38,604 nt of DNA from Anaerolineae bacterium (GCA_034433275.1 DAOUAT010000364.1:1-38604), one strand, 5' to 3'; shown: positions 4,231-38,604, counted from the first letter of the stretch. The notes: generated from the sequence alone by a model not told the origin. A program made the numbers and translations.

Positions 4231-4344
4231 GCCGGCCAACGGTACTGGCGTATGGTGTGCGAAGCTGGGGGCCGTCGTTCAGCCGACCGCCAGCTTCCCT
4301 TCTCTTTATCTGCCTTATCCCCGCCTGAGGATACTATAACGCCG

Positions 4345-10265: not shown

Positions 10266-10291
10266 ACGAGGCAAGATCAGTAGACGAACTC

Positions 10292-12250: not shown

Positions 12251-12288
12251 CAATGTGACATGGTAGGTTGGCTAAAGGAGGCCATCTG

Positions 12289-12705: not shown

Positions 12706-12708
12706 CGC

Positions 12709-14949: not shown

Positions 14950-14958
14950 GAGGCTGCT

Positions 14959-16544: not shown

Positions 16545-16553
16545 GAGTGTCTT

Positions 16554-17843: not shown

Positions 17844-17924
17844 CGACGGACGACAGATGAAGGATGAAGGACGAAGGACGGACGAAACCGTTGGTCATTC
17901 GTCATTCGTCATTCGTCCCGTCCT
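17843..17924. repeat. Imperfect palindromic simple-repeat element: GAYGAAG/GACGRAC-type heptamers on the left arm and three TCATTCG heptamers on the right arm
   Basis: acgacggacgacagatgaaggatgaaggacgaaggacggacgaa-accgttgg-tcattcgtcattcgtcattcgtcccgtcc. Left gacgaa pairs with right ttcgtc, and ggacggacgaa pairs with ttcgtcccgtcc with one bulge. It sits exactly between the hydA stop (17841..17843) and the conserved protease core. Confidence 0.7.
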
Positions 17925-19542: not shown

Positions 19543-20016
19543 ATGACCGAACACACGAATACGCTTGATCTGGCGCCACTCGACCGGATCCTGGGGCAAT
19601 ATGGCAACCAGAAGGACGCTGTGATCCCGATCCTGCAGAACGTCCAGGAAGCTTACGGCTACCTGCCCAGGGAAATTCTGACCCAGATATCCAAACGCAC
19701 CGGCATCCCTGAGGCCCGGCTGATGGGGGTGGCGACCTTCTACGCCCAGTTCCGGCTGAAGCCGCGCGGCAAGCACCTGATTCGCATCTGTGATGGGACC
19801 GCCTGCCACGTGCGTGGGGCGCCTGGCATTGTCAGCGCTATCGCAGCCCAATACGACGTGCTCCCCGGAGCTTCGTCATCCGACTACAAATACACACTCG
19901 AAGTCGTGTATTGCGTGGGAGCGTGTGGGCTGGCCCCGGTCATCATAGTTGACGATCAAGTGCATGGCAATCTCTCCCCAGATGCTGCTATCGAAGCGTT
20001 GTGTCATATCGAGTGA
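19543..20016 (+). CDS. NuoE/HoxE/HydC-like thioredoxin-fold [2Fe-2S] subunit
   Basis: 157 aa. AVIPILQNVQEAYGYLP...ATFYAQF..KP.GKH.I.ICDGTACHVRGA...VYCVGACGLAPVIIVDD is the NuoE 24-kDa-subunit signature with its 4 Cys. Confidence 0.85.
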   Translation: MTEHTNTLDLAPLDRILGQYGNQKDAVIPILQNVQEAYGYLPREILTQISKRTGIPEARLMGVATFYAQFRLKPRGKHLIRICDGTACHVRGAPGIVSAIAAQYDVLPGASSSDYKYTLEVVYCVGACGLAPVIIVDDQVHGNLSPDAAIEALCHIE

Positions 20017-20039
20017 GGCCGTTCCACTAGGAGGAATTG

Positions 20040-21956: not shown

Positions 21957-21975
21957 CCTGGGCAAGAGGTAGCCA

Positions 21976-24910: not shown

Positions 24911-26029
24911 ATGCCAAATGGAGAACTAACAATTGATGCCTTGATGCCGCCGCAGATGGCCGATCGGGCCGAAGCGATTGGCATCAAGAAAGCGAACACG
25001 GACTTCTGGACCATGTTTGCGTTAGCTGTGCTGGCCGGCGCATTCATCGGCGCTGGCGCGATGTTCGCAACAGTTGTGACAGCCGACGCGGCCGGCAAGT
25101 TGTCTTACGGCGTCGCCCGCTTATTGGGTGGCATCGTGTTTGCCGTCGGCCTGATCCTGGTCGTTGTTGCCGGGGCGGAGCTGTTCACGGGCAACAACCT
25201 GATCGTGATGGCCTGGGCAAATCGCAAAGTCAGCACCGGCAGACTCCTGCGCAACTGGGCCATCGTGTACGTGGGGAACCTGGTGGGGTCCGTGGCAAAT
25301 GCCATCCTGATCTTCTTGGGCCGCCAGTATACGTTCGGGAGCGGCGCAGTGGGCCTGCAAGTGCTCAATACGGCCGCATCTAAAACGAGTCTGAACTTCG
25401 TCCAAGCGTTAGCGTTAGGGATCATCTGCAATGCGCTGGTATGTATGGCTGTCTGGTTGTGCTACAGCGCCCGCAGCACGACAGATAAGATCCTCTCGAT
25501 CATCTTTCCGATTTCAGCGTTCGTAGCCGGTGGCTTCGAGCATAGCATCGCCAACATGTACTTCAGTAGACACGCTGACGTGTCTGGCAGTCGAGTAACA
25601 GTCAATCGTCGGCAAGGCGCAGGGAGGTGTGCCATGAAGCTTAACAATGTCCTGCAGGCCATAGACGGTAAGCTCATCACCAAAGAAGCAGACCTGGAGC
25701 TGGAAGTGCAGATGGGGTGCGGCGCCGACCTGATGAGCGATGTGCTGGCGTTCACCCACGCAGATACGCTGTTGCTCACCGGGCTCACCAACCCGCAGGT
25801 CGTGCGCACGGCGGACATGGCCGGGATCAGAGCGATTGTTTTCGTGCGGGGGAAACTTCCTCCCTCCGAAACGATCGCCCTGGCCGAGGACAAGGGCATC
25901 CCATTACTGGCCTCGAAGTACACGCTCTATGAAACTTGTGGCAAGCTTTATCGCGCAGGCATGCCGAGTTGTGGCCTGTTTGAGCACAGCGTCCGGCGTT
26001 GGGAGCAGTACTTTGAGGGCAAATCATGA
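24911..26029 (+). CDS. Single ORF. A formate/nitrite transporter (FNT) family protein lacking its last TM helix (aa 1-~218) reads without a stop into a DRTGG-domain protein (aa 242-372)
   Basis: The FNT part aligns by eye with FocA up to the conserved GGFEHSIANMYF motif (ends ~25564), then homology stops about 65 aa short. The other two frames hit stops within ~35 nt. From M242: MKLNNVLQAIDGKL...GADLMSDVLAF...LLLTGLTNPQVVRTA...IPLL..KYTLYETCGKLY, paralogous to 29812..30153. Confidence 0.7.
   Translation: MPNGELTIDALMPPQMADRAEAIGIKKANTDFWTMFALAVLAGAFIGAGAMFATVVTADAAGKLSYGVARLLGGIVFAVGLILVVVAGAELFTGNNLIVMAWANRKVSTGRLLRNWAIVYVGNLVGSVANAILIFLGRQYTFGSGAVGLQVLNTAASKTSLNFVQALALGIICNALVCMAVWLCYSARSTTDKILSIIFPISAFVAGGFEHSIANMYFSRHADVSGSRVTVNRRQGAGRCAMKLNNVLQAIDGKLITKEADLELEVQMGCGADLMSDVLAFTHADTLLLTGLTNPQVVRTADMAGIRAIVFVRGKLPPSETIALAEDKGIPLLASKYTLYETCGKLYRAGMPSCGLFEHSVRRWEQYFEGKS
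25621..25636 (+). promoter_or_regulatory. Internal SD (AGGGAGG) plus ATG 25634, the likely real start of the DRTGG protein (25634..26029)
   Basis: AGGGAGG at 25621..25627, 6 nt spacer, ATG at 25634, in frame with the FNT ORF. A perfect 7-bp hairpin agacacg-ctga-cgtgtct (25568..25585) lies at the point where FNT homology ends. Confidence 0.6.
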
Positions 26030-26430
26030 TGCTCCGTAAGATCCTCATCGTTGAAGATGATCCCGATATGGCGTTGGCGCTGCGTATGCCGCTGGAGGCC
26101 AGTGGCTACGAGATCATTGAAGCGCGTTCGGGCCTGGAAGGACTGCAAAAGCTCCAGGAAGTGCAGCCCGACCTGGTCATCTTGGACGCGATGATGGAAA
26201 CCAGTACGGCCGGGTTCCAATTCTCCCTGACCCTGCGCAGCCCTGATCCGCGGTCGCCGTATGCGGCCTACCGTCATGTTCCCCTGCTGATGGTTACAGC
26301 CATCCACACGACCACATCGCTGCGCTTTGGACCCGATGAGGCATACTTGCCCGTGGATGATTTTGTAGAAAAGCCGGTTGACCCTGATGTGCTCGTACAC
26401 AAGGTGCAGACGCTGCTCAGTAGCGCGTGA
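26026..26430 (+). CDS. Stand-alone REC protein (type B; paralog of the REC at 18382..18816)
   Basis: ATGA overlap with the upstream stop. ILIVEDDPDMALALRMPLEASGY...PDLVILDAMMETSTAGFQFSLTLRSPD..SPYAAY.H.PLLM.T.IH.TT.LRFGPD.AYLPVDDF.EKPVDP. This is nearly colinear with the 18382 domain. Confidence 0.85.
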   Translation: MMLRKILIVEDDPDMALALRMPLEASGYEIIEARSGLEGLQKLQEVQPDLVILDAMMETSTAGFQFSLTLRSPDPRSPYAAYRHVPLLMVTAIHTTTSLRFGPDEAYLPVDDFVEKPVDPDVLVHKVQTLLSSA

Positions 26431-26474: not shown

Positions 26475-26888
26475 ATGGCTAAAAGACAGCATATTCTGAT
26501 CGTTGACGATGATGTTCAGGCCGTAGACACGGTCGAGACGCTGCTCCAGAGTGTCGGCTATGAAACATCGCACGCGTACCTGGCCATGGATGGCCTGGAG
26601 CTTGCCCGGCAAGCGAAGCCGGATCTCATCCTGCTGGATGTCATGTTCGCGGGACCGCCCGGCCCCGACGGCTTCGAGGTCTCGCGCGAGCTCCATGAAG
26701 ATCCGGAACTCAAGGACATCCCGGTGATCATTCTATCGGGGCTCAAAAAGGTGATGGGCATCGCGGCCGATTTCACGCCGGACGAGACCTGGATGCCCGT
26801 CAAGGCCTTCATGGAGAAACCGGTCAAACCGGCCGACCTGTTGGCCCAGATCGAAAAGGTCATCGGCCCGCGGCCGCAGGCGGCGTAA
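26475..26888 (+). CDS. Stand-alone REC protein (type A; paralog of 12289..12705)
   Basis: AAGGAGG upstream. MAKRQHILIVDDDVQAVDTVETLLQSVGYET.HAY...PDLILLDVMFAGPPGPDGFEVSR.LHEDPELK.IPVIILSG...TWMPVKAFMEKPV.PA.LL..IEKV.GPR. Confidence 0.85.
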   Translation: MAKRQHILIVDDDVQAVDTVETLLQSVGYETSHAYLAMDGLELARQAKPDLILLDVMFAGPPGPDGFEVSRELHEDPELKDIPVIILSGLKKVMGIAADFTPDETWMPVKAFMEKPVKPADLLAQIEKVIGPRPQAA

Positions 26889-27013: not shown

Positions 27014-28132
27014 ATGTCAGGCACGACTGAGGCGCTGGAGTCGTTGAGCGCGGCGGTGCGGTGCATCGTGCCGCCCGGCGCCATCTCCGCGTGGGAGCTA
27101 AACCCATCGGCGGCCCAACTCACGTTGACATGCCCCCAGGGTTCCCCAACGGCTATCGTGGCCTGCGCCGTAACTGATAGCCCGCTGGCCCAGAAGGCGT
27201 TGGCTGACGGCAGTGCATCAGCCGCGCCCGATCCCGCGGTGGCTGACCCACTCCTGACGCACCTCGATGGCATGGCCCTGGCCCTGCGCCTGGGGACAGT
27301 GGAACAGCCCCGGGGCCTGCTCCTGATCCACACCGCCGCGCCGCACACCTTCACCCCCGAGGAGATCACGACCCTGCAAGCGCTGTGCCGACTTGGATCG
27401 GTCGCGCTGGGGGCAGCGCAGCGCGCCACCGAGTTAGCCCGGGTTGACGCCGGTCGGGATCAATTCATCCACGTCACCACGCACGAGCTCCGCTCGCCCC
27501 TGGCCGTCTCGCAAACACTGATCCGCAACGTCGTCAAAGGCTATGCCGGCCAGCTGACCGATAAACAAAAGGATGTGTTCACACGCATCTCCGGCCAGCT
27601 CGACCGGCTGGAAGGACTGGTCAACGACCTGTTGGACCTGGCCGCCAGCCGGGCCATCGGCGCCGAGGCGCTCATGTCAGTCATGCTCAACGCTGCGGTT
27701 GGCAGGGCAGTGCTGCTACTGAGCCCGCACGCAGAGGAGAAGGGGGTAGTGCTCGTCCTGCAGCCCTGTCGCGAGGAGCTTGTGGTTGCCGCGACGGAAG
27801 ATGGCCTCGACCGCATTTTCGTCAACCTGGTGGGCAACGCCATCAAGTACACCCCCGCCGGCGGCCAGGTCACCGTGTCAGTGATTCGCTCCGAAGCGCA
27901 GGCGGCAGTCACCGTGGCTGATACCGGGCTCGGCATCCCGGCCGAGGCTATGACGCACCTGTTTGAGGAATTCTATCGCGCACCCAACGTGCGCGCGGCC
28001 AATATCACGGGCACCGGCCTGGGTCTCGTCATTGTTAAGGAGCTGGTGGTGCGGTTTCACGGGCAGATTGATGTACAGAGTGAGGAGGGCAAAGGCGCCT
28101 CTTTCACAGTTCACCTGCCACGGTTCCGCTAA
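27014..28132 (+). CDS. Soluble sensor histidine kinase (GAF-like N-terminus, HisKA, HATPase_c)
   Basis: No TM segments. GAF-like ending ...RGLLLIHTAAPHTFTPEEITTLQALCRLGSVALGAAQ. H-box VTTHELRSPL, N box LVGNAIKYT, G boxes DTGLGI and GTGLGLVIVKE. The kinase core resembles that of 12709..13899 (EF[FY]RA.N...TGTGLGLVIVK). Confidence 0.8.
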   Translation: MSGTTEALESLSAAVRCIVPPGAISAWELNPSAAQLTLTCPQGSPTAIVACAVTDSPLAQKALADGSASAAPDPAVADPLLTHLDGMALALRLGTVEQPRGLLLIHTAAPHTFTPEEITTLQALCRLGSVALGAAQRATELARVDAGRDQFIHVTTHELRSPLAVSQTLIRNVVKGYAGQLTDKQKDVFTRISGQLDRLEGLVNDLLDLAASRAIGAEALMSVMLNAAVGRAVLLLSPHAEEKGVVLVLQPCREELVVAATEDGLDRIFVNLVGNAIKYTPAGGQVTVSVIRSEAQAAVTVADTGLGIPAEAMTHLFEEFYRAPNVRAANITGTGLGLVIVKELVVRFHGQIDVQSEEGKGASFTVHLPRFR

Positions 28133-28352: not shown

Positions 28353-28931
28353 GTGGCAACCCATGAGGTCATTGTGCTCACTGACGTCAAACGCGATATG
28401 GCGTTTGGCGACCGCCTGACCCCCGCCGGGCTCGAGCTTCGTACTTGTATTCAATGCGGCACCTGCACGGCATCCTGTCCGTCAGCCTCCGCGATGGACA
28501 TCACCCCCCGCAAGATGTGGCGCATGGTGCAGTTGGGCATGGTCGAAGAGGTGCTGAAAAGCAAGACCATGTGGCTGTGCAGCATCTGCTATCAGTGCCA
28601 GGTGCGCTGCCCCCGCGGCATCCCCCTCACCGAGGCCATCGCCAAGCTCAAGCAGCTTGCGATCCAGCAGCAGGTCAAGCAGTGGCGTGAGAGCACCACG
28701 TTCTACCTGGCCTTCAGCGACGTGATGCGGCGCTATGGCCGGATGCGCGAGACCGAGTTCATGGCGCGTTACTTCCTCTCCACCAATCCGCTGGAGGCGC
28801 TGGGCTACGCCGGAATGGGGCTGACCCTGCTGCGTCGTGGCAAGCTGCGCCCTGAGCTGCCGCGGTTAGCAGGCGAGGGCAAGCTGTCCAGGCTGTTCGA
28901 TCGCGTGGCGGAACTGGAGGGTCGCAAATGA
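28353..28931 (+). CDS. hdrC: Heterodisulfide reductase subunit C-like (2x[4Fe-4S])
   Basis: AGGAGG is 7 nt upstream of GTG 28353. CIQCGTCTASCP and CSICYQCQVRCP motifs with typical HdrC spacing. 192 aa. Confidence 0.85.
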   Translation: MATHEVIVLTDVKRDMAFGDRLTPAGLELRTCIQCGTCTASCPSASAMDITPRKMWRMVQLGMVEEVLKSKTMWLCSICYQCQVRCPRGIPLTEAIAKLKQLAIQQQVKQWRESTTFYLAFSDVMRRYGRMRETEFMARYFLSTNPLEALGYAGMGLTLLRRGKLRPELPRLAGEGKLSRLFDRVAELEGRK

Positions 28932-29797
28932 AACGCTATCTGTTCTACCCCGGCTGCTCCATGGACGCTTCGGCGCTGGAGTACAAGAGCGCCATGCTGG
29001 CCGTGTTTGCCGCCCTGGGCGCCGAAGTCACCGAGCTAGAGGATTGGACCTGCTGCGGCGCCAGCGTGGCACCGGTGATGAGCGACTTGCTGGGGCTGGC
29101 GTTGCCGGCGCGCAATCTGGCGATCGCCGAGAAGATGGGCAACAGCCGGACCATGGTAGTTGGTTGCAGCGCGTGCTTCACCAGCTTTGCCCGCACCAAT
29201 GCGGCCGTTGCCGCTCCCGCCGCCTTGAGCCGTGTGAACCAGGCGTTGGTGGTGGAAAACCTCCAATACAACAACACCATCACGGTCCGCCACATGCTGG
29301 ACGTGCTGGCCAACGACTTTGGCCCGGCCGCAGTGGCCGCGGCTGTCAAACGCCCGTTGACCGGCCTGAAGGTGGCCCCCTACTACGGCTGCCAGACGGT
29401 GCGGCCGTATGCCTCGTTTGATGACGGCCAGCAGCCGTGGTCTATGGTGGCCCTGCTCGAGGCCTTGGGCGCTACGGTCTACCACCACCTGCAGGAGGCG
29501 ACCTGCTGCGGCACTGCGCTCTTAACGACCAAACCGGAATTGGGGCTGCGCATCGCCGGCAGCATCCTGGAGGCTGCGCAACCGGCCGACTGCATCGCCG
29601 CCGTGTGTCCCATGTGCCACATGAACCTGGATAGCTATCAAGATAAAGTGTCCAAGGTGTTACGCAAACCGATCAAGATCCCGGTGGTGTTCCTGCCGCA
29701 GCTGATCGGCCTGGCGTTTGGGCTCGGAGAGAAGGAACTGCTCTTCAAACGACACGTGGTGCCGGTTGCTCCGGTGTTGGACAAGGCGCCCGCCTGA
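28928..29797 (+). CDS. hdrB: Heterodisulfide reductase subunit B-like (two CCG domains)
   Basis: ATGA overlap with hdrC. There are two CX..CCG..CXXC modules: PGCS...WTCCGAS...GCSACF and YYGCQ...ATCCGTA...CPMCHMNL. Confidence 0.85.
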   Translation: MKRYLFYPGCSMDASALEYKSAMLAVFAALGAEVTELEDWTCCGASVAPVMSDLLGLALPARNLAIAEKMGNSRTMVVGCSACFTSFARTNAAVAAPAALSRVNQALVVENLQYNNTITVRHMLDVLANDFGPAAVAAAVKRPLTGLKVAPYYGCQTVRPYASFDDGQQPWSMVALLEALGATVYHHLQEATCCGTALLTTKPELGLRIAGSILEAAQPADCIAAVCPMCHMNLDSYQDKVSKVLRKPIKIPVVFLPQLIGLAFGLGEKELLFKRHVVPVAPVLDKAPA

Positions 29798-29811: not shown

Positions 29812-30153
29812 ATGAAACTATCCGAGATCGTCCAACAGCTTTCGTTGGAAATCAAGGCCGGGACCGAGAAACTCGATGTCGAGGTCACCGGGGGCTATGC
29901 CTGCGATTTGTTGAGCTATGTGATGGCAAACGGCAAGGCAGGCGATCTCTGGATCACCATCCAGGGGCATCCCAATATCATCGCCGTCGCCAGCCTGATC
30001 AACCTTGCGGGGATCATCGTGGTTGAGGGCGCCAAGATCGATCCGGCAACCGTGGCCAAGGCCGACCAGGAACGCATCCCCTTGCTGGCAACCAACGAGA
30101 CGACCTACAACGTGGCTGGCAAACTGTACGCCTTGGGTGTGCATAGCGCGTAG
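29812..30153 (+). CDS. DRTGG-domain protein (paralog of 25634..26029)
   Basis: GGAGGG, then ATG 29812. MKLSEIVQQLSLEI..G...L...VTGGYACDLLSYVMA......LWITIQGHPNIIAVA.L..LAGIIV.EG......T...A....IPLLAT...TY.VAGKLY. The ORF is open from 29797. Confidence 0.75.
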   Translation: MKLSEIVQQLSLEIKAGTEKLDVEVTGGYACDLLSYVMANGKAGDLWITIQGHPNIIAVASLINLAGIIVVEGAKIDPATVAKADQERIPLLATNETTYNVAGKLYALGVHSA

Positions 30154-30157
30154 CCCC

Positions 30158-30748
30158 ATGCGTGAGTTGAGCCTGCACATCCTGGACATCTTGCAGAACT
30201 CGGCCGAAGCGGGCGCGACCCTGGTAGCGCTCACCATCGAGGAGGACCTGGCAGCTGACTGGTTGACCATCGTGGTGTGCGACAACGGTCGCGGCATCCC
30301 GGCCGATGTCTTGTCACACGTATTCGACCCGTTTTATACCAGCCGAAAAACGCGGCACGTGGGCCTGGGATTGCCTCTGCTGAAGGCGGCGGCCGAACGC
30401 TGCGCAGGCGATGTGGTGATCACGTCGGAAGTGGGTGTGGGAACGACGCTCACAGCCACCTTTCGACATAGTCACATCGATCGGGCCCCGTTGGGCGACC
30501 TGGGAGCAACGCTGCTGTCGTTCATCCTGGGTGGGACGTGCGATCTGCACTATGTACACCGCGTGACCGGCAGATCAGAAGATGGTAGATTGGCAGACTG
30601 GGATGTGGGCGCTGAGATCGGGGAATTCGAGTTTCATACCGTCCAGATCAAGGCCGCGTTAGGGGACGTGCCTCTGAGCCATCCGGCCGTGCGGGCATGG
30701 CTGCAAGAATTCATCACCGAGGGCGAAGCTGAGCTCAGGGGGGCTTAG
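30158..30748 (+). CDS. Stand-alone histidine-kinase-like ATPase (HATPase_c only; no HisKA or sensor domain)
   Basis: MRELSLHILDILQNSAEAGAT (N box), VCDNGRGIP (G1), HVGLGLPLLK (G2), GVGTTLTATF. ATG 30158 lies 4 nt after the upstream TAG. The ORF-track start at 30005 overlaps the previous gene. Confidence 0.75.
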   Translation: MRELSLHILDILQNSAEAGATLVALTIEEDLAADWLTIVVCDNGRGIPADVLSHVFDPFYTSRKTRHVGLGLPLLKAAAERCAGDVVITSEVGVGTTLTATFRHSHIDRAPLGDLGATLLSFILGGTCDLHYVHRVTGRSEDGRLADWDVGAEIGEFEFHTVQIKAALGDVPLSHPAVRAWLQEFITEGEAELRGA

Positions 30749-30826
30749 AAGCGGGATCAGGAGCATCCCTTCTACGCCACCCAGCCTGCAAGCCCCCAAT
30801 CTACCAGTCTACCAAGTTGCCAACCC

Positions 30827-31612
30827 ATGGCCTTTTTTGCCGCCGACCTGCACCTGCACACCGTCCTCTCGGCGTGCGCCGAGAGTGAGATGCTGCCCGC
30901 CCTGATCCTTGAGCGGACGGCGGCCTTGGGGCTGGATATCATCGCCATCACCGACCATAACTCGTCGGAGAACGCGGCCGCGATGATTCAGGCGGCGGAA
31001 GCTATGGGGATCGTCGTCTGGCCGGGCATGGAGTTGCAATCACGGGAAGAGGCGCACCTGCTGTGCCTGTTCGACACGTTGGCGCAGGCGCTGCAATGGC
31101 AAGCGCTCGTTTACACCAGCCTGCCGCCTTTGAAGAACAAGCCGGCCGTCTTCGGCCAGCAGGTTGTGCTGGCGCCGGACGGCGATCCGGTCGGCTACAA
31201 CGACCGGCTGCTGGCGACCTCGTCGGCGCTTTCGGTGGATGAAGCCGTCGCCGGCGTGCGTGCGCTGGGCGGCCTGTGCATCCCGGCGCACGTTGACCGA
31301 CCGATGTACAGCATCATCGCGAACCTGGGCTTCGTCCCGCCGGAACTGGACGTCCCGGGCGTGGAGATTTCGCACCTGTTGGGCCCGAAGGAGGCGCGGG
31401 CCCGGTTTCCCCAATTGGCGCGTTATGGGTTGATCGCCAACAGCGATGCGCATCGGCTGAGCGAGATACGCAAACGCACCACCCTGAAGCTGGCCGCGCC
31501 GACGGTGGCCGAGTTGGCGCTGGCATTGGCAGGCCGGGAAGACCGAGGCGTTTGGATTGATGGCTTGCGCGCCAACCGTGAAGGCGCCACTGAGCAGTGG
31601 CACAGCCTATGA
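30827..31612 (+). CDS. PHP-domain (polymerase/histidinol-phosphatase-like) metal-dependent phosphoesterase
   Basis: N-terminal ADLHLHTVLSACA...IIAITDHNS, later PAHVDR and NSDAH. These are the His/Asp metal-ligand motifs of PHP domains. Confidence 0.75.
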   Translation: MAFFAADLHLHTVLSACAESEMLPALILERTAALGLDIIAITDHNSSENAAAMIQAAEAMGIVVWPGMELQSREEAHLLCLFDTLAQALQWQALVYTSLPPLKNKPAVFGQQVVLAPDGDPVGYNDRLLATSSALSVDEAVAGVRALGGLCIPAHVDRPMYSIIANLGFVPPELDVPGVEISHLLGPKEARARFPQLARYGLIANSDAHRLSEIRKRTTLKLAAPTVAELALALAGREDRGVWIDGLRANREGATEQWHSL

Positions 31613-32790
31613 CACCGCCCAAGCTTTGGATCGAAACCGCGCACGAAACGTGGCCCGGCCCGGCCGACGAGGGAACCGGCATCATCATTCGCACCTTATC
31701 AACTGAGGACCGCTTTCTGGCGTTGTTGGCGCATGGGAACGGGTGGGCTACCCCAGATCCTCGTGCCGCGCTGCTGGCTGCCTGGGAGGCGTTGGCCTGG
31801 GGGGCTGAGTTCACGCTCACCGGCGAGCGCCTGCTGGCGAAGTTGCCGGTCGGCATGCACCTGCCGTGGGCCGCGCTGGAAGCGGGGCCGGCGAGCGCTG
31901 CGGGGGGCGGATCAGGGCAACTGCTGGAGTGCGACGCGCCACCGATGTTCTATGCGCGGCGCGGGGAGGTCGTGCTGCTGCCCGTCATCGAGGAAGAGGC
32001 GCACGGCCGGTTGTTACGTCGCTGCGACTTCGACGTTCGGGACGGCGACCACCTGGCGTTGGTCAGCGAAAACTACATTCGCGCCAAAGGCGGCGCCCAA
32101 CCGTGGTGCTGGCGCGATATCGCTGTATCCATCCGTCGCTTGATAGTCACGGGGGGCAGCGCGGCGGAACTGGCGGGGGCATTGGCGCGGATAGCGAATC
32201 AGCGAATCAGCGAATCAACGAATCAGCGAATCGGTGAATTCGCCATTCGCCATTCACCATTCGCCATCCTTGCCATGCGCGTCCGGCCCGTGCGCAGCGT
32301 GAGGGTGTGGACCGGCCCGCCGGCCGAGCGGAAACGGGATCAGGCGGCGTTAGCGCAGCTCTTGGCAGAGGAGGGTCGCCGCGTCATCTGCGGTGACACG
32401 ACGGCTGAGATCGCGGCCCGACTGCTGGGCGGCAGACTGGCGATGGACCCGCCGCCGCCGGAGGGTTGGGGCGAAGTGCCGCCGACCTTGCGCCTGGCCG
32501 GGGCCGCCGAGCGGGTGGATTTGATCACCGAAGGCGCGGTGACGCTCCATGTGGCGCAGCAACGGCTAGCCGAGACGCAGCGGCCGCGCGACCTGGCAGG
32601 CCGCAGCGATGGCGCTTCTCAGCTGGCAAAGCTGTTATTGGAAGCGGACAAGGTCACCTTTCTGGTCGGCCTGGCTGTGAACCCGGCTCAAACGGAGCGG
32701 GATGGAACGCCGTTGCGCAAGGCCGCGGTCGAGGATCTGGTGCAGAGGTTGAGGGCACGCGGCAAGATCGTGTCTGTGACATTTTTCTGA
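31609..32790 (+). CDS. SpoIIE/PP2C-like protein with an apparently degenerate catalytic site plus a C-terminal domain of unknown function; carries an in-frame repeat insertion
   Basis: ATG 31609 overlaps the PHP stop (ATGA). The ORF is open from GTG 31597. SpoIIE-like spacing is present (...LLAHGNGW..P..AAL...ECDAPPMFYARRGEVVLL...VRDGDHLALVSENYI). However, the usual GD..D, DVSGHG and SDG acidic residues are replaced. The C-terminal half (VICGDTTAEIAARLLG...VDLITEGAVTL...) is a type I recall seeing next to hydrogenase-operon phosphatases. Confidence 0.55.
   Translation: MTPPKLWIETAHETWPGPADEGTGIIIRTLSTEDRFLALLAHGNGWATPDPRAALLAAWEALAWGAEFTLTGERLLAKLPVGMHLPWAALEAGPASAAGGGSGQLLECDAPPMFYARRGEVVLLPVIEEEAHGRLLRRCDFDVRDGDHLALVSENYIRAKGGAQPWCWRDIAVSIRRLIVTGGSAAELAGALARIANQRISESTNQRIGEFAIRHSPFAILAMRVRPVRSVRVWTGPPAERKRDQAALAQLLAEEGRRVICGDTTAEIAARLLGGRLAMDPPPPEGWGEVPPTLRLAGAAERVDLITEGAVTLHVAQQRLAETQRPRDLAGRSDGASQLAKLLLEADKVTFLVGLAVNPAQTERDGTPLRKAAVEDLVQRLRARGKIVSVTFF
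32194..32267. repeat. Palindromic simple-repeat element inside the CDS: five GCGAATCA-type octamers followed by four ATTCGCC-type heptamers
   Basis: gcgaatca gcgaatca gcgaatca acgaatca gcgaatcg gtga attcgcc attcgcc attcacc attcgcc. The arms are mutually complementary through the gcgaat/attcgc core. It translates in frame as ANQRISESTNQRIGEFAIRHSPFAI. It shares the CGAAT/ATTCG core with the element at 17843..17924. Confidence 0.75.
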
Positions 32791-32847: not shown

Positions 32848-33693
32848 ATGGAAAAACCCAAGATCGGCGTCTATGTCTGTGACTGTGGCGTGAACATTGC
32901 GGCCACAGTCAATGTCCCCGAGGTCGTCAAGTTCTCGGAGGGGCTGCCGAACGTGACCGTGGCGCGCGAGTACAAGTATATGTGCTCCGATCCCGGCCAA
33001 AAGATGATCAAGGAGGACATCAAACAATTCGGGCTGGACCGTGTCGTCGTCGCAGCATGTACGCCCCGCATGCACGAACCGACCTTTCAAAACGCCGTCA
33101 ACGAAGCTGGCATGAACCCGTACCACTTCGCCATGGCGAACATCCGCGAGCACGTCTCCTGGGTGGTCAAGGACGTGCCCGCGGGCACCGAAAAGGCTAA
33201 GCGCCTGGTCAACGCCACTGTGATGCGCGTGGCGCTGCAAACCGAGCTGTACGCGCGCAAGGAACCGGTGACGCCGGCCGCGCTGATCGTCGGCGGTGGC
33301 ATCGCCGGCATCCAGGCTGCGCTCACGGTCGCTGATGCAGGCTACAAGGTGTACCTGGTCGAGCGGGAATCGTCCATCGGCGGGCACATGGCCCAGCTGG
33401 ACAAAACGTTCCCCACGCTCGACTGTAGCACCTGAATTCTGGGGCCCAAAATGATGGATGCCGGTCGGCATCCCCAGATAGAGCTCCTGACCTACAGCGA
33501 AATCGAAGAAGTGTCGGGCTACGTGGGTAACTTCAAAGTGAAGGTGCGCAAAAAGGCCCGCTACGTGGACACCGAGGCGTGCACCGGTTGCGGCTTGTGC
33601 TGGCAGGAATGCCTCACCGTGCGCATCCCGCAGCTCAAGCTCATCAAGATGGGCGAGATGAGCCTGGGTGAAAGGAGGCCCGGCGACCGATGA
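32848..33693 (+). CDS. hdrA: HdrA N-terminal fragment: N-terminal 4Fe-4S domain, FAD (GxGxxG) region and the first CxxCxxCxxxC motif of the inserted ferredoxin domain; selenoprotein with in-frame UGA at 33433..33435
   Basis: ORFs 32848..33435 and 33451..33693 share one frame. The junction reads [37 protein letters not shown]. This matches the conserved HdrA ...LDKTFPT.DCS.C(U)IL.PKM... segment, in which some organisms use Sec. GGAGGG lies upstream of ATG 32848. It ends ...RYVDTEACTGCGLCWQECL... and stops at 33693, overlapping the next start (ATGA). Confidence 0.8.
33456..33473 (+). promoter_or_regulatory. Candidate SECIS apical stem-loop (7-bp stem, GGUC loop) downstream of the hdrA UGA
   Basis: ggatgcc-ggtc-ggcatcc, flanked by ctgggg (33439..33444) and ccccag (33473..33478), which can extend the helix. 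The loop sequence is the same as in the E. coli fdhF SECIS (gcaGGUCugc). It starts 20 nt after the UGA. Confidence 0.55.
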
Positions 33694-34241
33694 ACGAGTA
33701 CAGCACGCAACGCGTCGAAGAGATCATCCGCAGCTACAACTCGGACATGACCAACGGCCTGGCCATCCTCCAGGATATCCAGCGTGAGTATAACTACCTC
33801 CCGCGCCAGGCACTTGAACTGGTTGCCGAGCGCGTGGGCCTGCCGCCGGGGCACGTCTATCGCCTCGCCACCTTCTTCAAGGCGTTCAGCCTCAACCCCA
33901 AGGGCGAGCACCAGTGCAAGGTCTGCCTGGGCACCGCCTGCCACGTCAAGGGCGGCGCGTTGATCCTGGAGACGTTGGAGAAGGAGCTGGGCGTCAAGGC
34001 GGGCATCACCACGGCCGACGGCAAGTTTTCGCTGGAAGGGGTGCGCTGCCTGGGCGCCTGCGCCCTGGCGCCGATCGTCGTGATTGACGATGAGCCGTTG
34101 GGACAGATGACATCGGATGCCGCCGCCAGCAAACTGCGCGACCTGCGCGCCGGCAAGGCGGTGCCCGTGCCGGCCCAGGTGGCGCCCAAAGTTGCTGCCA
34201 AGACGCCGGTGGACCGCTCAGCCGTGCCGCCGAAAGGATAA
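33690..34241 (+). CDS. NuoE/HydC-like thioredoxin-fold [2Fe-2S] subunit (second copy)
   Basis: LAILQDIQREYNYLP...ATFFKAFSL.PKGEH..KVCLGTACHVKGG...VRCLGACALAPIVVIDD. AAAGGAGG lies upstream. It has a C-terminal Ala/Pro/Lys-rich tail. Confidence 0.85.
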   Translation: MNEYSTQRVEEIIRSYNSDMTNGLAILQDIQREYNYLPRQALELVAERVGLPPGHVYRLATFFKAFSLNPKGEHQCKVCLGTACHVKGGALILETLEKELGVKAGITTADGKFSLEGVRCLGACALAPIVVIDDEPLGQMTSDAAASKLRDLRAGKAVPVPAQVAPKVAAKTPVDRSAVPPKG

Positions 34242-34247
34242 GCCAAG

Positions 34248-34622
34248 ATGCCTCAACTCAAAAGCTTAGACGAACTCCGCTCCTTGCGCGCGCGGCTGCA
34301 ACAGGATATCAAAACCCGCACCGAGACCAGCACGACTATCACCGTCGGCATGGGGACGTGCGGCATCGCGGCCGGTGCGCGCGAGGTGATGCAGGCCTTT
34401 TGGGACGAGCTGGCGGCCCGCCAGATTGACGCCCATGTCGTCACCACCGGCTGCATCGGCATGTGCTCCAAGGAGCCGCTGGTAGACATCCAACAGGGCG
34501 ATGGCCCGCGCATCACTTACGGCAACATAGACACAACCATGGTGCCGCGCATCATCGAAGAGCACATCATCCAGGGGCATGTGGTGAGCCCGTGGGTGGT
34601 GGGCCAGGCGGCGAGGGGGTAA
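34248..34622 (+). CDS. Small thioredoxin-like (2Fe-2S) ferredoxin-domain protein (HydD-like position between the NuoE-like and NuoF-like genes)
   Basis: 124 aa. ITVGMGTCGIAAGAREV...VVTTGCIGMCSKEPLVDI...YGN......I.EEHI..G. The same position and size are seen for the small fourth subunit described for some NADH-dependent [FeFe] hydrogenase operons. Confidence 0.7.
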   Translation: MPQLKSLDELRSLRARLQQDIKTRTETSTTITVGMGTCGIAAGAREVMQAFWDELAARQIDAHVVTTGCIGMCSKEPLVDIQQGDGPRITYGNIDTTMVPRIIEEHIIQGHVVSPWVVGQAARG

Positions 34623-34624
34623 AG

Positions 34625-36550
34625 ATGGCAGATCCTTCGACTCCACTCAGGATGCACCGAGCCGATGTCCTGGTCAGTTGTCTGCACGGCCGGGCCCCCG
34701 AATTCATCCCCACCTTGAAAGAGGAGATCGCCCAGCGCGGCCTGGCCGAAGAGGTCAGGGTGGTTGAGACCGGCTGCCGCGGCTTCTGCAGCATGGGGCC
34801 GGTGCTCACGATCGAGCCCGGCGGCGTTTTCTACGCCAACGTACAAGCGGCCGACGTCCCCGAACTGGTTGAAGAGACGCTGGTGAAGGGCCGTGTGGTG
34901 CAGAAGCTGTTGTACAAGGAGCCGGTGGGCCGCAAGGCCGTGCAAAAGTACGAGCAGATCCCGTTCTACGCCAAACAGATGCGCATCGTCCTGGGCAATT
35001 CCGGCCGCATCGAGCCGACCTCCATTGAAGAGTACATCGCGGTCGGCGGCTACGAAGCCCTGGGTAAGGCGCTGGCTTCGCTGACACCGGAGCAGGTGAT
35101 TGACGAGGTCAAGAAGTCCGGTCTGCGCGGGCGCGGGGGCGCGGGGTTCTACACCGGCCGGAAGTGGGAGCACACCCGCCACGCGGCCGGAGACGTGAAA
35201 TACATCATCGCCAACGGTGACGAGGGCGATCCGGGCGCGTTCATGGATCGCGCCTTGATGGAAGGCGATCCGCACGCGGTGCTCGAGGGGATGATCATCG
35301 GCGGGTATGCTGTGGGCGCACACCAGGGCTACATCTACGTGCGCGACGAATATCCCTTGGCGGTGAAGAACCTCGGCATCGCGCTCGGCCAGGCGCGCGA
35401 GTTCGGCCTGCTCGGCGCCGACATCCTGGGCTCCGGCTTCGATTTCGATATCAAGATCGTGCGCGGGGCCGGCGCGTTTGTGTGCGGCGAGTCCTCGGCG
35501 CTGATGCAATCGCTGGAGGGCAAGGTTGGCGAGCCGCGGGCCAAGCACGTCCACGCCACCGACCGCGGCTTGTGGGATCGGCCCTCATGCCTCAACAACG
35601 TCGAAACCTGGGCCAACATCCCGCACATCATTAACCAGGGCGCGGACTGGTTCGCCAGCATCGGCACCGAGCACAGTAAGGGCACCAAGGCATTCTGTCT
35701 GGTGGGCAAGGTGCGCAACCCCGGCCTGATCGAAGTGCCCATGGGGATGAGCCTGAAGAGCATCGTCAACGACATCGGCGGCGGGCCGCCCAAGGGCCGT
35801 AAGATCAAGGCGGTGCAGACCGGCGGGCCGTCCGGCGGCTGCATCCCGGCCGACAAGCTCGACATCCCGGTGGACTACGAAACCCTGACCGAAGCCGGCT
35901 CCATGATGGGCTCCGGCGGCATGATCGTGCTGGATGACCGGACCTGCATGGTGGACATCGCCCGCTACTTCCTGGAGTTCCTCAAGGACGAGTCCTGCGG
36001 CAAGTGCTCCACCTGCCGCGAGGGCATCAAGCGCATGTTGGAGATCCTGACCCGCATCGCTGATGGCACGACCAGGCCGGGCGACCTGCCGATGTTGGAG
36101 GCGCTGGCGAAGACAGTCGCTTCCTCTTCGTTGTGCGGCCTGGGCAAGTCGGCGCCGAACCCGGTCATCAGCACCCTGCGCTACTTCCGCCACGAGTACG
36201 AGCAGCACATCAACCAGCAGTTCTGCGAGTCCGGTGTGTGCCGCGATCTGGTGGCGTTCGTGATCCTGGAGGACAAGTGCAAGGGCTGCGGCTTGTGCAT
36301 CAAGGTCTGCTCGCAGGATGGCATCTCCGGTTCGCTGAAACAGCCGCACGAGATTGACCAGGTGAAGTGCATCCAGTGCGGCGCGTGCTTCGAGGCGTGC
36401 AATCTCAACGCCATCCAGATCGTGCCGCGGTCGACCGTGGTGGTCGGCCAGACAACCGTGCCGGTGCTCACGCAACCGACGGCGGGCGCCGCCGGTCGAA
36501 AGGCGCAAAGCGGCGGCAACGGCAACGGCCGCAAGGCTGCGGGGAGGTGA
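34625..36550 (+). CDS. NuoF/HydB-like NAD(H)/FMN subunit (second copy) with a C-terminal 2x[4Fe-4S] domain
   Basis: ATG 34625 lies 2 nt after the upstream TAA. The ORF track extends it spuriously to 34463. GLRGRGGAGFYTGRKWE...YIIANGDEGDPGAFMDR, ESCGKCSTCREG...CGLG, CKGCGLCIKVCS...CIQCGACFEACN. It is colinear with 20040..21956. Confidence 0.9.
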   Translation: MADPSTPLRMHRADVLVSCLHGRAPEFIPTLKEEIAQRGLAEEVRVVETGCRGFCSMGPVLTIEPGGVFYANVQAADVPELVEETLVKGRVVQKLLYKEPVGRKAVQKYEQIPFYAKQMRIVLGNSGRIEPTSIEEYIAVGGYEALGKALASLTPEQVIDEVKKSGLRGRGGAGFYTGRKWEHTRHAAGDVKYIIANGDEGDPGAFMDRALMEGDPHAVLEGMIIGGYAVGAHQGYIYVRDEYPLAVKNLGIALGQAREFGLLGADILGSGFDFDIKIVRGAGAFVCGESSALMQSLEGKVGEPRAKHVHATDRGLWDRPSCLNNVETWANIPHIINQGADWFASIGTEHSKGTKAFCLVGKVRNPGLIEVPMGMSLKSIVNDIGGGPPKGRKIKAVQTGGPSGGCIPADKLDIPVDYETLTEAGSMMGSGGMIVLDDRTCMVDIARYFLEFLKDESCGKCSTCREGIKRMLEILTRIADGTTRPGDLPMLEALAKTVASSSLCGLGKSAPNPVISTLRYFRHEYEQHINQQFCESGVCRDLVAFVILEDKCKGCGLCIKVCSQDGISGSLKQPHEIDQVKCIQCGACFEACNLNAIQIVPRSTVVVGQTTVPVLTQPTAGAAGRKAQSGGNGNGRKAAGR

Positions 36551-36554
36551 AGAC

Positions 36555-38354
36555 ATGGCAAAATCAACCCTGACGATTGACGGTCAGATCATCCAGGCCG
36601 ACGGCAGCATGACCATCCTGGAGGTCTGCCGCAAGAACAACATTCACATCCCCACGCTGTGCTACCATCCGGTGCTGGAACCGTACGGCGCGTGTCGCCT
36701 CTGCACCGTCGAGGTGACCCGCAAAGGCTGGTCGAGCCTGCACACCTCCTGCACGCATCCGGCGTGGGACGGGATCGAGGTGAAGACCAACTCGCCGGAG
36801 GTGCGCGAGGCGCGCAAGATGATCATGGGACTGATGCTCTCGCGCACCCCCAACGTGCCGATCATCCAGGAGTTGGCCGCGGAGTATGGCGTGGCCGAGC
36901 CACCCTTTGCCGTGGATGACCCCAACGAGAAGTGCATCCTGTGCGGGCTGTGCGTGCGGGTGTGCAACGACATGGTGCAGGCCCACGTGCTGAACTTCTC
37001 GGATCGGGGCGTGGATCGCAAGGTTGGCCCGCCGTTCATGGAGAAAACACGGCAGTGCATCGGCTGCGGCGCATGCACCATCGTCTGCCCCACCGGCGCC
37101 ATCGAGATCGTGCTGGAGCAAAACGGCATCTATGCCGAGAAGCCGCTCGGTCCCACGGCGGCCATCTACGTGCCGTCGCTGCAGGCAGTGCCCCGCGCGC
37201 CGGTGATCGACACCGACTCGTGCATCCGCTTCCGGCAGTACGACCGCTCCAACGGAGAGATCGCCGACGCGTGCGGCGCGTGCCAGCAGCTCTGCGAGGC
37301 GAACGCGATTGACTTCACCCAAAAGGACGAGGTCATCGAGCTGGACGTGGGCGCCATCATCGTGGCCACCGGCTTCCAGATGTGGGATTCCAGCAAGCTG
37401 AGCCAGTACTCTTACGGCAAGTCACCCAACATCATCACCGCGCTGGAGTTCGAACGGCTGTCCAACGCCAGCGGCCCCACCGGCGGCCAAATCGTCACCG
37501 CCGACGGGAAGACGCCGGAGCGAGTCGCGCTCATCCACTGCGTGGGCTCGCGCGACAAAAACGTCAACGCGCACGAATACTGCTCGCGCATCTGCTGCAT
37601 GTACTCGCTGAAGCAGGCCCACCTGGTGCGCGACAAGACGCACGCCGACGTGTACGAGTTCTACATGGACATGCGCGCGTTCGGCAAGGGCTACGAGGAG
37701 TTCTACGAGCGCGTCCAGGAAGAAGGGGTGGTGATGGTGCGCGGCCGCGGGGCCGAGGTGCAGGTGCTGCCCTCCGGCAAGCTGCGCGTGACGGGCGAGG
37801 ATGCCAACCTGGGCAAACTGGTGGCCGTGGACGTGGACATGGTGGTGCTGAGCTCGGCCATCGAGGCCCCGGCCGACGCGTCGAAGGTCGGCTCGCTGTT
37901 CGGCCTCTCCCGCACCTCCGACGGCTGGTTCGCCGAAGCGCATCCCAAGCTGAAGCCGGTGGAGACCAATACCGACGGCGTGTTCCTGGCCGGCTGCGCG
38001 CAGGGGCCGAAGGACGTGCCCGACACGGTGGCGCACGCGGGCGCGGCGGCCTCTCAAGTCCTCGCGCTGTTGAGCAAGGGCGAAGTGACCATCTCGCCGC
38101 AGGTTGCGATCGTGGACGAGAAGCTCTGCTCCGCGTGCAAGACCTGCCTGTCAGTGTGCCCGTATGGCGCCATCGGCTTCATCGTGGACGCGAACAGCGC
38201 GCGCATCAACGAGGCGCTGTGCAAGGGCTGCGGCACCTGCGTGGCAACCTGCCCGGCCGGCGCGATCACCGGCCAGCACTTCACTGATGAGCAGATCTAC
38301 GCGCAGATCGAGGGGCTGTTCCGGCTGCCGGAGCGGGTGGAGGTGGTAAGATGA
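36555..38354 (+). CDS. hdrA: Fusion protein: HydA/NuoG-type FeS N-terminus (2Fe-2S, 4Fe-4S clusters) joined to the C-terminal two-thirds of HdrA (rest of the inserted ferredoxin domain, FAD domain, C-terminal 2x[4Fe-4S])
   Basis: The N-terminus [15 protein letters not shown]...[19 protein letters not shown]...[12 protein letters not shown]...[16 protein letters not shown] parallels the FdhA N-terminus at 21976. From ...[21 protein letters not shown]...[15 protein letters not shown]...[14 protein letters not shown]...CVGSRD...[14 protein letters not shown]...[28 protein letters not shown]...[16 protein letters not shown]...[16 protein letters not shown] it is canonical HdrA. GGGAGGTGA lies upstream. 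Confidence 0.85.
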
Positions 38355-38604
38355 GTACTAATGGTAAATTCGAGCCTCGTATTGTAGGCTTCCTCTGCAA
38401 CTGGTGTACCTACACCGCGGCCGACACCGCCGGCGTCTCGCGCATGGAGCAGCCGCCCAACGTGGACATCATCCGCTTCATGTGTACGGGCCGCATCGAG
38501 CCGGCCTTCGTGCTGAAGGCGTTCGCCGAAGGGGCCGATGGCGTGATCATCTCCGGCTGCCATCCGCCCGGCGATTGCCACTACACCAACGGCAACTACA
38601 AGAC
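38351..38604 (+). CDS. mvhD: MvhD-like (methyl-viologen-reducing hydrogenase delta subunit family) protein; 3' end lies beyond the window
   Basis: ATG 38351 overlaps the upstream TGA (ATGA). [31 protein letters not shown]...[38 protein letters not shown] is the MvhD signature. Confidence 0.85.

Follow-up and report, generated by a model that had tools for sequence, protein, structure and literature searches.

In anaerobes, the balance of H2, NADH and ferredoxin is governed by NuoEF (Bfu-type) enzymes, among them the bifurcating hydrogenases. The described systems closest to the one presented here are the hfsABCD operon of Thermoanaerobacterium, in which HfsB is a HydS homologue acting in regulation and HfsC a homologue of serine phosphatases (PMC5707799, PMC11837493), and the [FeFe] hydrogenases that HydDB places in the kinase-linked group C1 and the phosphatase-linked group C3, both of them listed as 'putative' sensors (PMC5037454). 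As for the enzymes themselves, the Bam-Bfu complex joins an HdrA module to BfuABC, and no Hdr/Mvh-linked class is among the Bfu classes named in the same study (PMC9304861). Here, we describe a cassette of four genes located inside an hdr operon of an Anaerolineae bacterium, on contig DAOUAT010000364.1 of assembly GCA_034433275.1. The window analysed is this one entire contig, 38,604 bp long. The cassette encodes a stand-alone DRTGG-domain protein (DRTGG-b), a protein reduced to a histidine-kinase type ATPase domain and an extension (HATPase-only protein), a PHP-family protein and an HfsC-like two-domain protein with a predicted SpoIIE/PP2C fold (gene 4, or P4). The host belongs to an Anaerolineae-type Chloroflexi lineage of subsurface and hot-spring metagenomes, near-identical sequences being found in subsurface samples and more distant traces in hot-spring samples.

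The operon reads hdrC-hdrB-(DRTGG-HATPase-PHP-pseudoPP2C)-hdrA'-nuoE-fdx-nuoF-nuoG::hdrA''-mvhD-mvhG-mvhA, where pseudoPP2C stands for the gene 4 product, a predicted pseudo-phosphatase. The first-pass annotation, made from the DNA sequence alone, had placed four tightly packed genes between hdrB and hdrA, and this layout is borne out: 14 nt separate the hdrB stop from the DRTGG-b start, which is preceded by the ribosome-binding site GGAGGGA (an alternative ATG at 29797 would lengthen the protein to 118 aa), the two following gaps measure 4 and 78 nt, the start of gene 4 overlaps the PHP stop as ATGA, and 57 nt lie between the end of gene 4 and the hdrA start. A promoter/terminator scan gave no significant terminator on the + strand from hdrC to hdrA, with counts at the chance level. 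We fetched 12 related loci by means of gene 4 or the HATPase gene, and their operon order is hdrC-hdrB-DRTGG-HATPase-PHP-gene 4-hdrA(N)-nuoE-fdx-nuoF-nuoG::hdrA(C), apart from the variants given below, with gene 4 down to 48% identity. All seven relatives with enough downstream sequence (L001, L002, L003, L084, L085, L086 and L087) continue into MvhD and then the NiFe small and large subunits (Pfam FlpD, Oxidored_q6 and NiFeSe_Hases at the mvhD position and beyond), followed by rubrerythrin, a small rubredoxin-like (RUBY_RBDX) protein, HycI and another DRTGG gene. Therefore, the [NiFe] Mvh hydrogenase belongs to the operon, although its genes lie beyond the contig end. The loci L088-L090 have a fused hdrCB gene (~398 aa) between the HATPase and PHP genes, giving the order DRTGG-HATPase-hdrCB-PHP-P4, and because of this interleaving with hdr genes the cassette must be seen as a part of the operon rather than as a recent or foreign insert. 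The variant operon occupies about 9500-13800 in each of the three loci, and L088 and L089 also carry a toxin-antitoxin-like pair (NTP_transf_2/HepT) and an HU-HIG gene between gene 4 and hdrA(N).

The four-gene arrangement is far beyond chance and the gene set recurs across related loci. Against an 88%-identical relative, the ratio of nonsynonymous to synonymous substitution rates (dN/dS) is 0.09-0.21 across the four cassette genes (DRTGG-b 0.13, HATPase-only gene 0.09, PHP 0.12), the comparison genes hdrB, nuoE and nuoF giving 0.05-0.09 with the same relative. The cassette is thus a conserved signal-transduction or accessory gene set under purifying selection, and its position within a single hdr/nuo/mvh operon argues that it serves the H2-linked Hdr/NuoEF(Bfu)/[NiFe]-hydrogenase complex.

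This complex shares with the methanogen Mvh-Hdr and with Bam-Bfu (BamDEFGHI) the HdrABC and MvhDGA components and the Bfu core, of which the NuoE-like and NuoF-like subunits and the NuoG-like BfuA N-terminal domain all match by Pfam. In contrast to those systems, HdrA is here split around nuoE-fdx-nuoF, so that its halves flank these three genes, and the C-terminal part, which we read as HdrA from its motifs, is fused to the NuoG-like domain. The N-terminal part contains an in-frame TGA (33436-33438, DCST*ILGPK), and the same split, into 195 aa and 80 aa, is present in all relatives; this TGA probably encodes selenocysteine. An in-frame TGA is also found at ~23113 in the fdhA gene of a separate module upstream (ARL*HSPTVSGLG), where selenocysteine is equally probable.

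Two neighbourhood surveys relate the cassette to Bacillota. The HATPase survey was a metagenome scan anchored on the Bacillota HATPase homologue (best 80 kept of at least 585 matches), in which the denominators 50 and 38 are the loci having enough sequence; the PP2C-type survey used one genome per species (best 80 kept of at least 597 matches, 79 loci counted), its query being a Bacillota-only alignment because a diverse alignment was too divergent to use, which biases it towards Bacillota. The loci of the latter are mostly from Bacillota, with a few from Calditrichales, Treponema, Fusobacteriaceae, Planctomycetota and Izemoplasmatales. DRTGG and PHP genes were labelled by multi-seed phmmer. 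NuoE stands immediately upstream of the Bacillota HATPase gene in 50/50 loci, and downstream of it are NuoF (38/38), HydA (37/38) and a small ferredoxin (35/38). The divergent operon beside hydABC carries PHP (27/31), DRTGG (25/31) and a HydS-like protein of ~465 aa without PAS domain (25/31), all three together in 23/31 loci, and also encodes a 141-aa HATPase_c_2 protein (RsbW-like kinase). The Bacillota layout is therefore PHP, DRTGG-b, HydS-like, RsbW-like kinase and DRTGG-a, divergent from nuoE, HATPase, fdx, nuoF and hydA, and six or seven of the 38 loci have in addition HydS-PAS and a PP2C-type gene after hydA. Among the Bacillota loci (L004-L083 and L093-L172), the HATPase-only gene was seen only where the small ferredoxin (~125 aa) is a separate gene, and not in the examined hydABC operons with a ferredoxin domain fused to NuoF (~620-630 aa); this link is one-way, since L011 and L173 have a separate ferredoxin and no HATPase gene.

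The PP2C-type genes give a second picture. A HydS-type protein (Fer4, Fe_hyd_lg_C, FeS and often PAS domains) is encoded directly upstream of them in 73/79 loci, while NuoF is found within 10 kb in 21/79 only. The typical operon consists of a 2Fe-2S protein of ~85 aa, HydS of ~570 aa, the PP2C-type protein of ~390 aa and an [FeFe] hydrogenase of ~490 aa, a gene order that matches the published description of hfsA-D (PMC5707799, PMC11837493). Gene 4 belongs to the same family as the Bacillota gene downstream of HydS-PAS, that is, to the family of two-domain proteins of ~390 aa, made of a PP2C domain and an unnamed C-terminal domain. Gene order, lengths and the SpoIIE match suggest equating this family with HfsC, and hfsABCD with HydS (group C3) and its PP2C partner. 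In contrast to hfsABCD, the window cassette has no HydS, HfsA or HfsD, the aspartates of its PP2C domain are lost and its neighbours are Hdr, NuoEF and Mvh; indeed, a position directly downstream of HydS is found in none of the window and the 12 Chloroflexi-type loci.

With regard to the Bacillota tetrameric bifurcating hydrogenase, DRTGG-b, the HATPase-only protein, PHP and DRTGG-a (a second DRTGG protein, encoded upstream of the hdr operon) all have counterparts, at 35-44% identity, and the pairings DRTGG-b/PHP, DRTGG-a/kinase and HATPase/nuoE and fdx are common to both. DRTGG-b is closest to the DRTGG gene beside PHP (35% identity, E 2e-19) and DRTGG-a to the one beside the RsbW-like kinase (42% identity, E 6e-33), each being the reciprocal best match of its counterpart; the HATPase-only protein shares 44% identity, along its entire length, with the product of the gene between nuoE and fdx in hydABC operons, and PHP matches its counterpart with 151 bits (E 4e-45). 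By these correspondences, the cassette is homologous to the accessory genes of the Bacillota hydC(nuoE)-X-hydD(fdx)-hydB(nuoF)-hydA operon and of its putative sensory hydrogenases. The differences are that the window genes form one co-directional block inside an hdr operon, that the catalytic hydrogenase is the [NiFe] Mvh, that two receivers and a HisKA kinase come after DRTGG-a, and that the ~465-aa H-cluster protein and the 141-aa HATPase_c_2 kinase are absent; the window's set thus lacks the two H-cluster sensor proteins found in the Bacillota set as well as its RsbW-like kinase.

Several claims of the first-pass annotation can be judged from these data. The link to NuoE/NuoF-type [FeFe] hydrogenase operons with HydS, which it had put forward, agrees with the survey counts. 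All reading frames of the window are free of H-cluster motifs, as expected from its statement that [FeFe] and HydS genes are absent, and no H-cluster gene was seen in the 12 related Chloroflexi-type loci either, so that HydS is dispensable for the presence of the cassette. In contrast, the proposal that the cassette travels with the NuoEF-type module rather than with the hydrogenase is unsupported, because a hydrogenase is in the operon of every adequately long locus, because the PP2C-type gene tracks HydS and not NuoF, and because the FDH (formate dehydrogenase)-linked NuoE-NuoF of the window and that of L173 have no HATPase, PHP or PP2C-type genes. The cassette tracks H2-linked NuoEF (Bfu-type) complexes built on NuoE-Fdx-NuoF, not NuoEF as such. 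The further proposal of the first-pass annotation, post-translational control, is a reasonable hypothesis.

As to the proteins themselves, the DRTGG, HATPase_c and PHP assignments pass Pfam, and gene 4 itself has no SpoIIE match. DRTGG-b lies just above the curated threshold (27.4 bits against a cut-off of 25.2); no solved relative was found by sequence, the only matches among PDB sequences being designer 'Pizza' proteins, which we regard as chance matches. The HATPase-only protein consists of a histidine-kinase catalytic ATP-binding (CA) domain, in which the alignment shows the N, G1, F and G2 boxes all intact, and a conserved C-terminal extension of ~90 aa with an invariant SHIDRxPLGD motif. 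It begins at the ATP-binding domain, and Pfam finds in it neither HisKA/DHp nor a sensor domain, in line with the earlier annotation; HATPase_c and HATPase_c_3 match and the HATPase_c_2 profile does not. Its nearest solved structures are CA domains of histidine kinases, BCKDH kinase being a weaker match. The PHP protein (37.7 bits against a Pfam cut-off of 26.4) has the metal ligands H9, H11, D43, H44, E69, H77, H155, D207 and H209, kept in at least 90% of 41 family members; its nearest solved structure is a putative metal-dependent phosphoesterase (3e0f/3o0f), and in NCBIfam it weakly resembles nucleotide bisphosphate phosphatases and RNase RNM. It is probably an active metal-dependent phosphoesterase.

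The product of gene 4 retrieves nothing in Pfam, NCBIfam or PDB sequences, and the 120 homologues nearest to it are unnamed proteins of Chloroflexi, Anaerolineae and Thermoflexales in which Pfam finds no domain; more than 100 homologue clusters are intact and full-length, at 47-81% identity. An exhaustive HMMER search shows a family of ~385-390 aa with 934 representatives at E <= 1e-3 and 593 at E <= 1e-10, the family profile spanning positions 1-391 in most of the 150 matches listed. Pfam SpoIIE is matched by 81/87 sampled family representatives (best E 2.4e-25), the six exceptions being the window protein together with five sequences that are among the nearest to it in the alignment. In the AlphaFold model (predicted local distance difference test, pLDDT, 86) the N-terminal half has a PP2C fold, for which Foldseek against the PDB retrieves SpoIIE 5mqh (E 1.1e-9), followed by 3pu9, PstP, tPphA and RsbX, all with probability 1.00. 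The label 'SpoIIE-like' in the first-pass annotation was therefore right, given the family matches and the fold of the model, while the loss of the catalytic residues had been overlooked. Of the motifs that characterize the family, GD (85/87 members) is replaced by GI (I29) in the window protein, DG (81/87) by HG (H46), SDG (80/87) by SEN (E158-N159), and GDD (81-82/87) by EF (E214-F215), within a low-complexity linker. Because the metal-binding aspartates are lost, the PP2C domain is predicted to be catalytically dead, that is, a pseudo-phosphatase.

Two tandem repeats, (AGCGAATC)x5 and (ATTCGCC)x4.3, code for this linker, and one repeat is nearly the reverse complement of the other. The linker stands where the GDD catalytic motif was, and relatives have other low-complexity peptides at the same spot. 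With repeat units of 8 and 7 nt, a change in copy number would shift the frame. In the source metagenomes, the bin containing the linker repeats has a depth of ~100-600x, in contrast to ~2-8x elsewhere, which argues that the repeat is dispersed in the source communities.

Family-wide, conservation is highest in the C-terminal alpha/beta domain, which has the motifs CGGTTA, TEG, NPA and GK and at least 30 invariant positions; G266, E312, G313 and G358 are identical in 87/87 sequences. This domain has neither a Pfam family nor a significant fold match in the PDB: modelled alone (pLDDT 90.5), it is only weakly similar to methylglyoxal synthase and to formylmethanofuran dehydrogenase subunit B, and we assign no fold because the best PDB E value is 0.02. 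The nucleotide-binding domain of four-carbon acid sugar kinases was considered on the basis of a single NBD_C match and of the CGGTTA motif, and a permissive Pfam scan of ten C-terminal domains does not support this link. The dN/dS of gene 4 is 0.14 in the dead N-terminal domain and 0.22 in the C-terminal domain, the other three cassette genes having 0.09-0.13, and these values argue strongly against a decaying pseudogene.

Taken together, we hold it to be somewhat more probable than its opposite that the accessory set of bifurcating [FeFe] hydrogenases has been reused here as a protein-level regulator of the H2-linked Hdr/NuoEF/[NiFe] complex. Control at the protein level is probable since the cassette has no DNA-binding domain and the neighbouring response regulators are receiver-only. 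In such a mechanism, the HATPase-only protein would bind ATP and then phosphorylate a partner, or clamp onto it in an ATP-dependent manner, this partner being either DRTGG-b or a subunit of the NuoE-Fdx-NuoF core. The PHP enzyme would act as the hydrolase undoing or resetting this step, the dead PP2C protein could, by way of its conserved C-terminal domain, be a scaffold or sense a ligand, and the H2 or redox input, supplied by HydS in Bacillota, would come from the complex itself or from a kinase-fused [NiFe] hydrogenase encoded upstream. A more specific proposal joins all these elements: the H-cluster sensors would have been replaced, an ATP-dependent DRTGG/HATPase/PHP/pseudo-PP2C switch would dock onto NuoE-Fdx-NuoF and gate the Hdr-Bfu-Mvh electron flow, the H2 input would arrive via the group-3-type [NiFe] hydrogenase with a receiver-kinase-fused beta subunit (12709-17843), and the dead PP2C would be a phosphatase turned scaffold. 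That all of these hold jointly is rather unlikely, and we offer this combination as a tentative model.

Known regulatory modules offer partial parallels. Like RsbU/RsbV/RsbW and SpoIIE/SpoIIAA/SpoIIAB, the cassette combines a GHKL-fold ATPase, a protein of PP2C/SpoIIE fold and a small protein of ~115 aa encoded beside the kinase. In contrast to these partner-switching modules, no STAS match was found by Pfam among the cassette proteins, no sigma factor was seen, the ATPase belongs to HATPase_c and not HATPase_c_2, and the PP2C domain is inactive by its residues; the resemblance may thus indicate a way of working, and not membership. The mitochondrial kinases PDK/BCKDK, which pair with the PP2C phosphatases PDP/PPM1K, are a precedent for kinases and phosphatases that dock on a multi-subunit dehydrogenase and switch it post-translationally, although the likeness of the HATPase-only protein to PDK/BCKDK is distant and concerns only the ATP-binding fold.

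Several points weigh against a regulatory role of this kind. To our knowledge, none of the four families has been given a biochemical function in any organism, and the activity of a histidine-kinase CA domain without DHp as a kinase is unproven. That the HATPase gene always lies between nuoE and fdx (50/50) is just as compatible with a stoichiometric subunit or an assembly factor. One related locus, L092 (8087-12100), contains hdrC, hdrB, HATPase, PHP and a 192-aa open reading frame (ORF) followed by unrelated genes, without NuoEF or Mvh, so that either the NuoEF/Mvh link is not absolute, or the contig is rearranged or chimeric, or the cassette is decaying there. A search for RNA runs with the locus found none, only subsurface and hot-spring DNA metagenomes. 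Finally, keeping the best 80 loci biases the surveys towards relatives of the queries, and other enzyme partners may therefore exist.

The main rival explanation is that the four proteins help to assemble or mature the complex containing NuoE-Fdx-NuoF or are additional subunits of it, for example a chaperone of the GHKL ATPase type and a PHP enzyme that hydrolyses nucleotides and works on a cofactor or a nucleotide by-product. The fixed place of the HATPase gene inside a structural operon, the tightly packed and overlapping genes, the conservation of a pseudo-phosphatase that would be unable to dephosphorylate and the relationships of the PHP protein, whose nearest solved relative is a putative phosphoesterase and whose weak NCBIfam likeness is to nucleotide phosphatases and RNase RNM, all fit such a role. 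Nevertheless, the same families are linked to sensor-type proteins in Bacillota (HydS-PAS, RsbW-like kinase), hfs genetics points to regulation (PMC5707799), and many HydABC operons with fused Fdx-NuoF do without the HATPase gene, which is therefore not generally needed for assembly; we regard this explanation as unlikely. Somewhat more doubtful is the idea of the first-pass annotation, that the cassette accompanies the NuoEF-type module as such, controlling it post-translationally and independently of any hydrogenase. It is true that the HATPase-only gene is embedded in nuoE-fdx-nuoF operons in every locus examined, and that NuoE-Fdx-NuoF stays constant while its partner changes from the [FeFe] HydA of Bacillota to Hdr and the [NiFe] Mvh of Chloroflexi; against this stand the hydrogenases present wherever the sequence suffices (HydA 37/38, Mvh 7/7), the preference of the PP2C-type gene for HydS over NuoF and the FDH-linked modules of the window and of L173, which are devoid of HATPase, PHP and PP2C-type genes. 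The cassette, or at least gene 4, could also be the decaying remnant of a hydABC-type nuoE-fdx-nuoF block recruited into an hdr/mvh operon, as the vanished PP2C catalytic residues, the replacement of the former GDD by a linker of 8-nt and 7-nt tandem repeats and the loss of HydS and of the RsbW-like kinase might indicate. This we consider very improbable in view of the low dN/dS in the dead domain (0.14) and in the other genes, the many intact full-length homologues and the invariant positions of the gene 4 C-terminal domain.

If the cassette regulates an H2-linked complex, a possible source of its input lies 15 kb upstream, where the window holds a complete [NiFe] hydrogenase gene set (Table 1), with a receiver and a kinase fused to its beta-like subunit. 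The earlier statement that no sensory hydrogenase is present thus holds for the [FeFe]/HydS type and may not extend to this enzyme, which had been overlooked; likewise, the absence of a hydrogenase is true for [FeFe]/HydS only, since the window contains this [NiFe] set and the operon runs into Mvh. The fusion is kept at ~745 aa in ~28 clusters of 60-92% identity, and its gene order recurs in L173 (69% identity) and L175 (38%, with an NtrC-type regulator upstream). Four of its homologues lie on contigs equal in size to those with gene 4 homologues. No description of a kinase-fused [NiFe] hydrogenase was found in the literature searched; it may be a substitute H2 sensor and a new kind of H2- or redox-sensing kinase.

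The second DRTGG gene pointed out by the first-pass annotation passes Pfam, and it is followed by two receiver-only response regulators and a soluble histidine kinase, an order kept in L001-L003 and L087. DRTGG-a, the receivers and the kinase are probably part of the cassette's regulatory set. Just upstream of DRTGG-a, the window (25565-25569) shows a 420-bp deletion relative to the 87%-identical L001 (3445-3864), by which the 3' end of a formate/nitrite transporter gene and a 75-aa AsnC_trans_reg-like gene are gone and the truncated transporter ORF is joined in frame to DRTGG-a (ORF 24911-26029). This deletion is not an artefact of the present assembly, because an independent contig, from run X1, spans the junction without gaps. 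Near the other end of the window, an RsbW-like protein and a GAFx3-SpoIIE phosphatase are followed by two Cache-HAMP histidine kinases, which makes the window unusually rich in signalling genes.

Table 1. Features of the 38,604-bp window, in the order of their coordinates.
Feature	Position	Strand	Evidence and remarks
RsbW-like HATPase_c_2 protein	4252-4806		184 aa
RsbW-like protein with GAFx3-SpoIIE phosphatase	4252-7726		phosphatase of 975 aa; SpoIIE E 5.7e-48
Cache-HAMP histidine kinases, two	8280-12250		downstream of the preceding pair
Receiver-HisKA-HATPase-Fer4_22 fusion	12709-14949	+	Pfam; sulfhydrogenase-beta-like, 746 aa
Gamma subunit	14959-15795	+	Pfam
NiFe small subunit	15660-16544	+	Pfam
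NiFe large subunit	16554-17843	+	Pfam; nickel-binding motifs RICGICAVGH and DPCISCSTH intact
HycI::receiver fusion	17836-18816	+	Pfam
FDH-linked NuoEF module	19543-24825		no HATPase, PHP or PP2C-type gene
NuoE-NuoF of the FDH-linked module	19543-21956		Pfam
FdhA	21976-24825		in-frame TGA at ~23113
DRTGG-a	25634-26029	+	Pfam DRTGG E 2.3e-7, 31.0 bits
Receiver-only response regulators, two	26026-26430, 26475-26888	+	Pfam
Soluble histidine kinase	27014-28132	+	Pfam
hdrC	28353-28931	+	Pfam Fer4_17/Fer4_8
hdrB	28928-29797	+	Pfam CCG E 2.6e-24; directly upstream of the cassette, same operon as hdrC
DRTGG-b	29812-30153	+	stand-alone DRTGG-domain protein, 113 aa; Pfam DRTGG E 3.2e-6
HATPase-only gene	30158-30748	+	Pfam HATPase_c E 1.1e-18
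PHP gene	30827-31612	+	Pfam PHP E 3.5e-9
Gene 4 (P4)	31609-32790	+	HfsC-like two-domain protein
Gene 4, N-terminal PP2C/SpoIIE-fold domain	to about 32190	+	fold from the model
Gene 4, linker	32193-32267	+	two tandem repeats
Gene 4, C-terminal alpha/beta domain	about 32260-32790	+	
HdrA N-terminal part (split HdrA)	32848-33693	+	Pfam FAD_oxidored and related families
nuoE	33690-34241	+	Pfam 2Fe-2S_thioredx E 1e-45
fdx (HydD-like)	34248-34622	+	small ferredoxin
nuoF	34625-36550	+	Pfam Complex1_51K E 1.9e-45
NuoG-like 2Fe-2S/4Fe-4S domain fused to HdrA C-terminal part (as read from motifs)	36555-38354	+	Pfam NADH_4Fe-4S, Fer2_4 and Fer4 within the block 33690-38354
mvhD (FlpD), start	38351-38604	+	last 254 nt of the window; cut by the contig end

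At the level of annotation, the gene families are already known, and so is their association with bifurcating hydrogenases and HydS; full-text literature searches found no study of these accessory genes. What appears to be new is the HydS-free version of the set, embedded among Hdr and Mvh genes, together with the dead phosphatase within it, the correspondence of the DRTGG paralogues between Chloroflexi and Bacillota and the candidate kinase-fused [NiFe] sensor. The operon is a natural dissection of the system, in which the accessory genes persist under selection without an H-cluster sensor, with another type of hydrogenase and with a phosphatase that is predicted to be dead. This suggests that phosphatase activity is not always required in the set, and that the interaction partner is to be sought in the NuoE-Fdx-NuoF part or in the H2-linked electron flow. 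The finding therefore narrows which parts of an unexplained regulatory system are essential, and it flags an unnamed domain family of more than 900 representatives as well as a possible new class of H2 sensors. If our interpretation is true, the dead PP2C protein would be a natural case of the conversion of a phosphatase into a scaffold within a regulator of redox enzymes.

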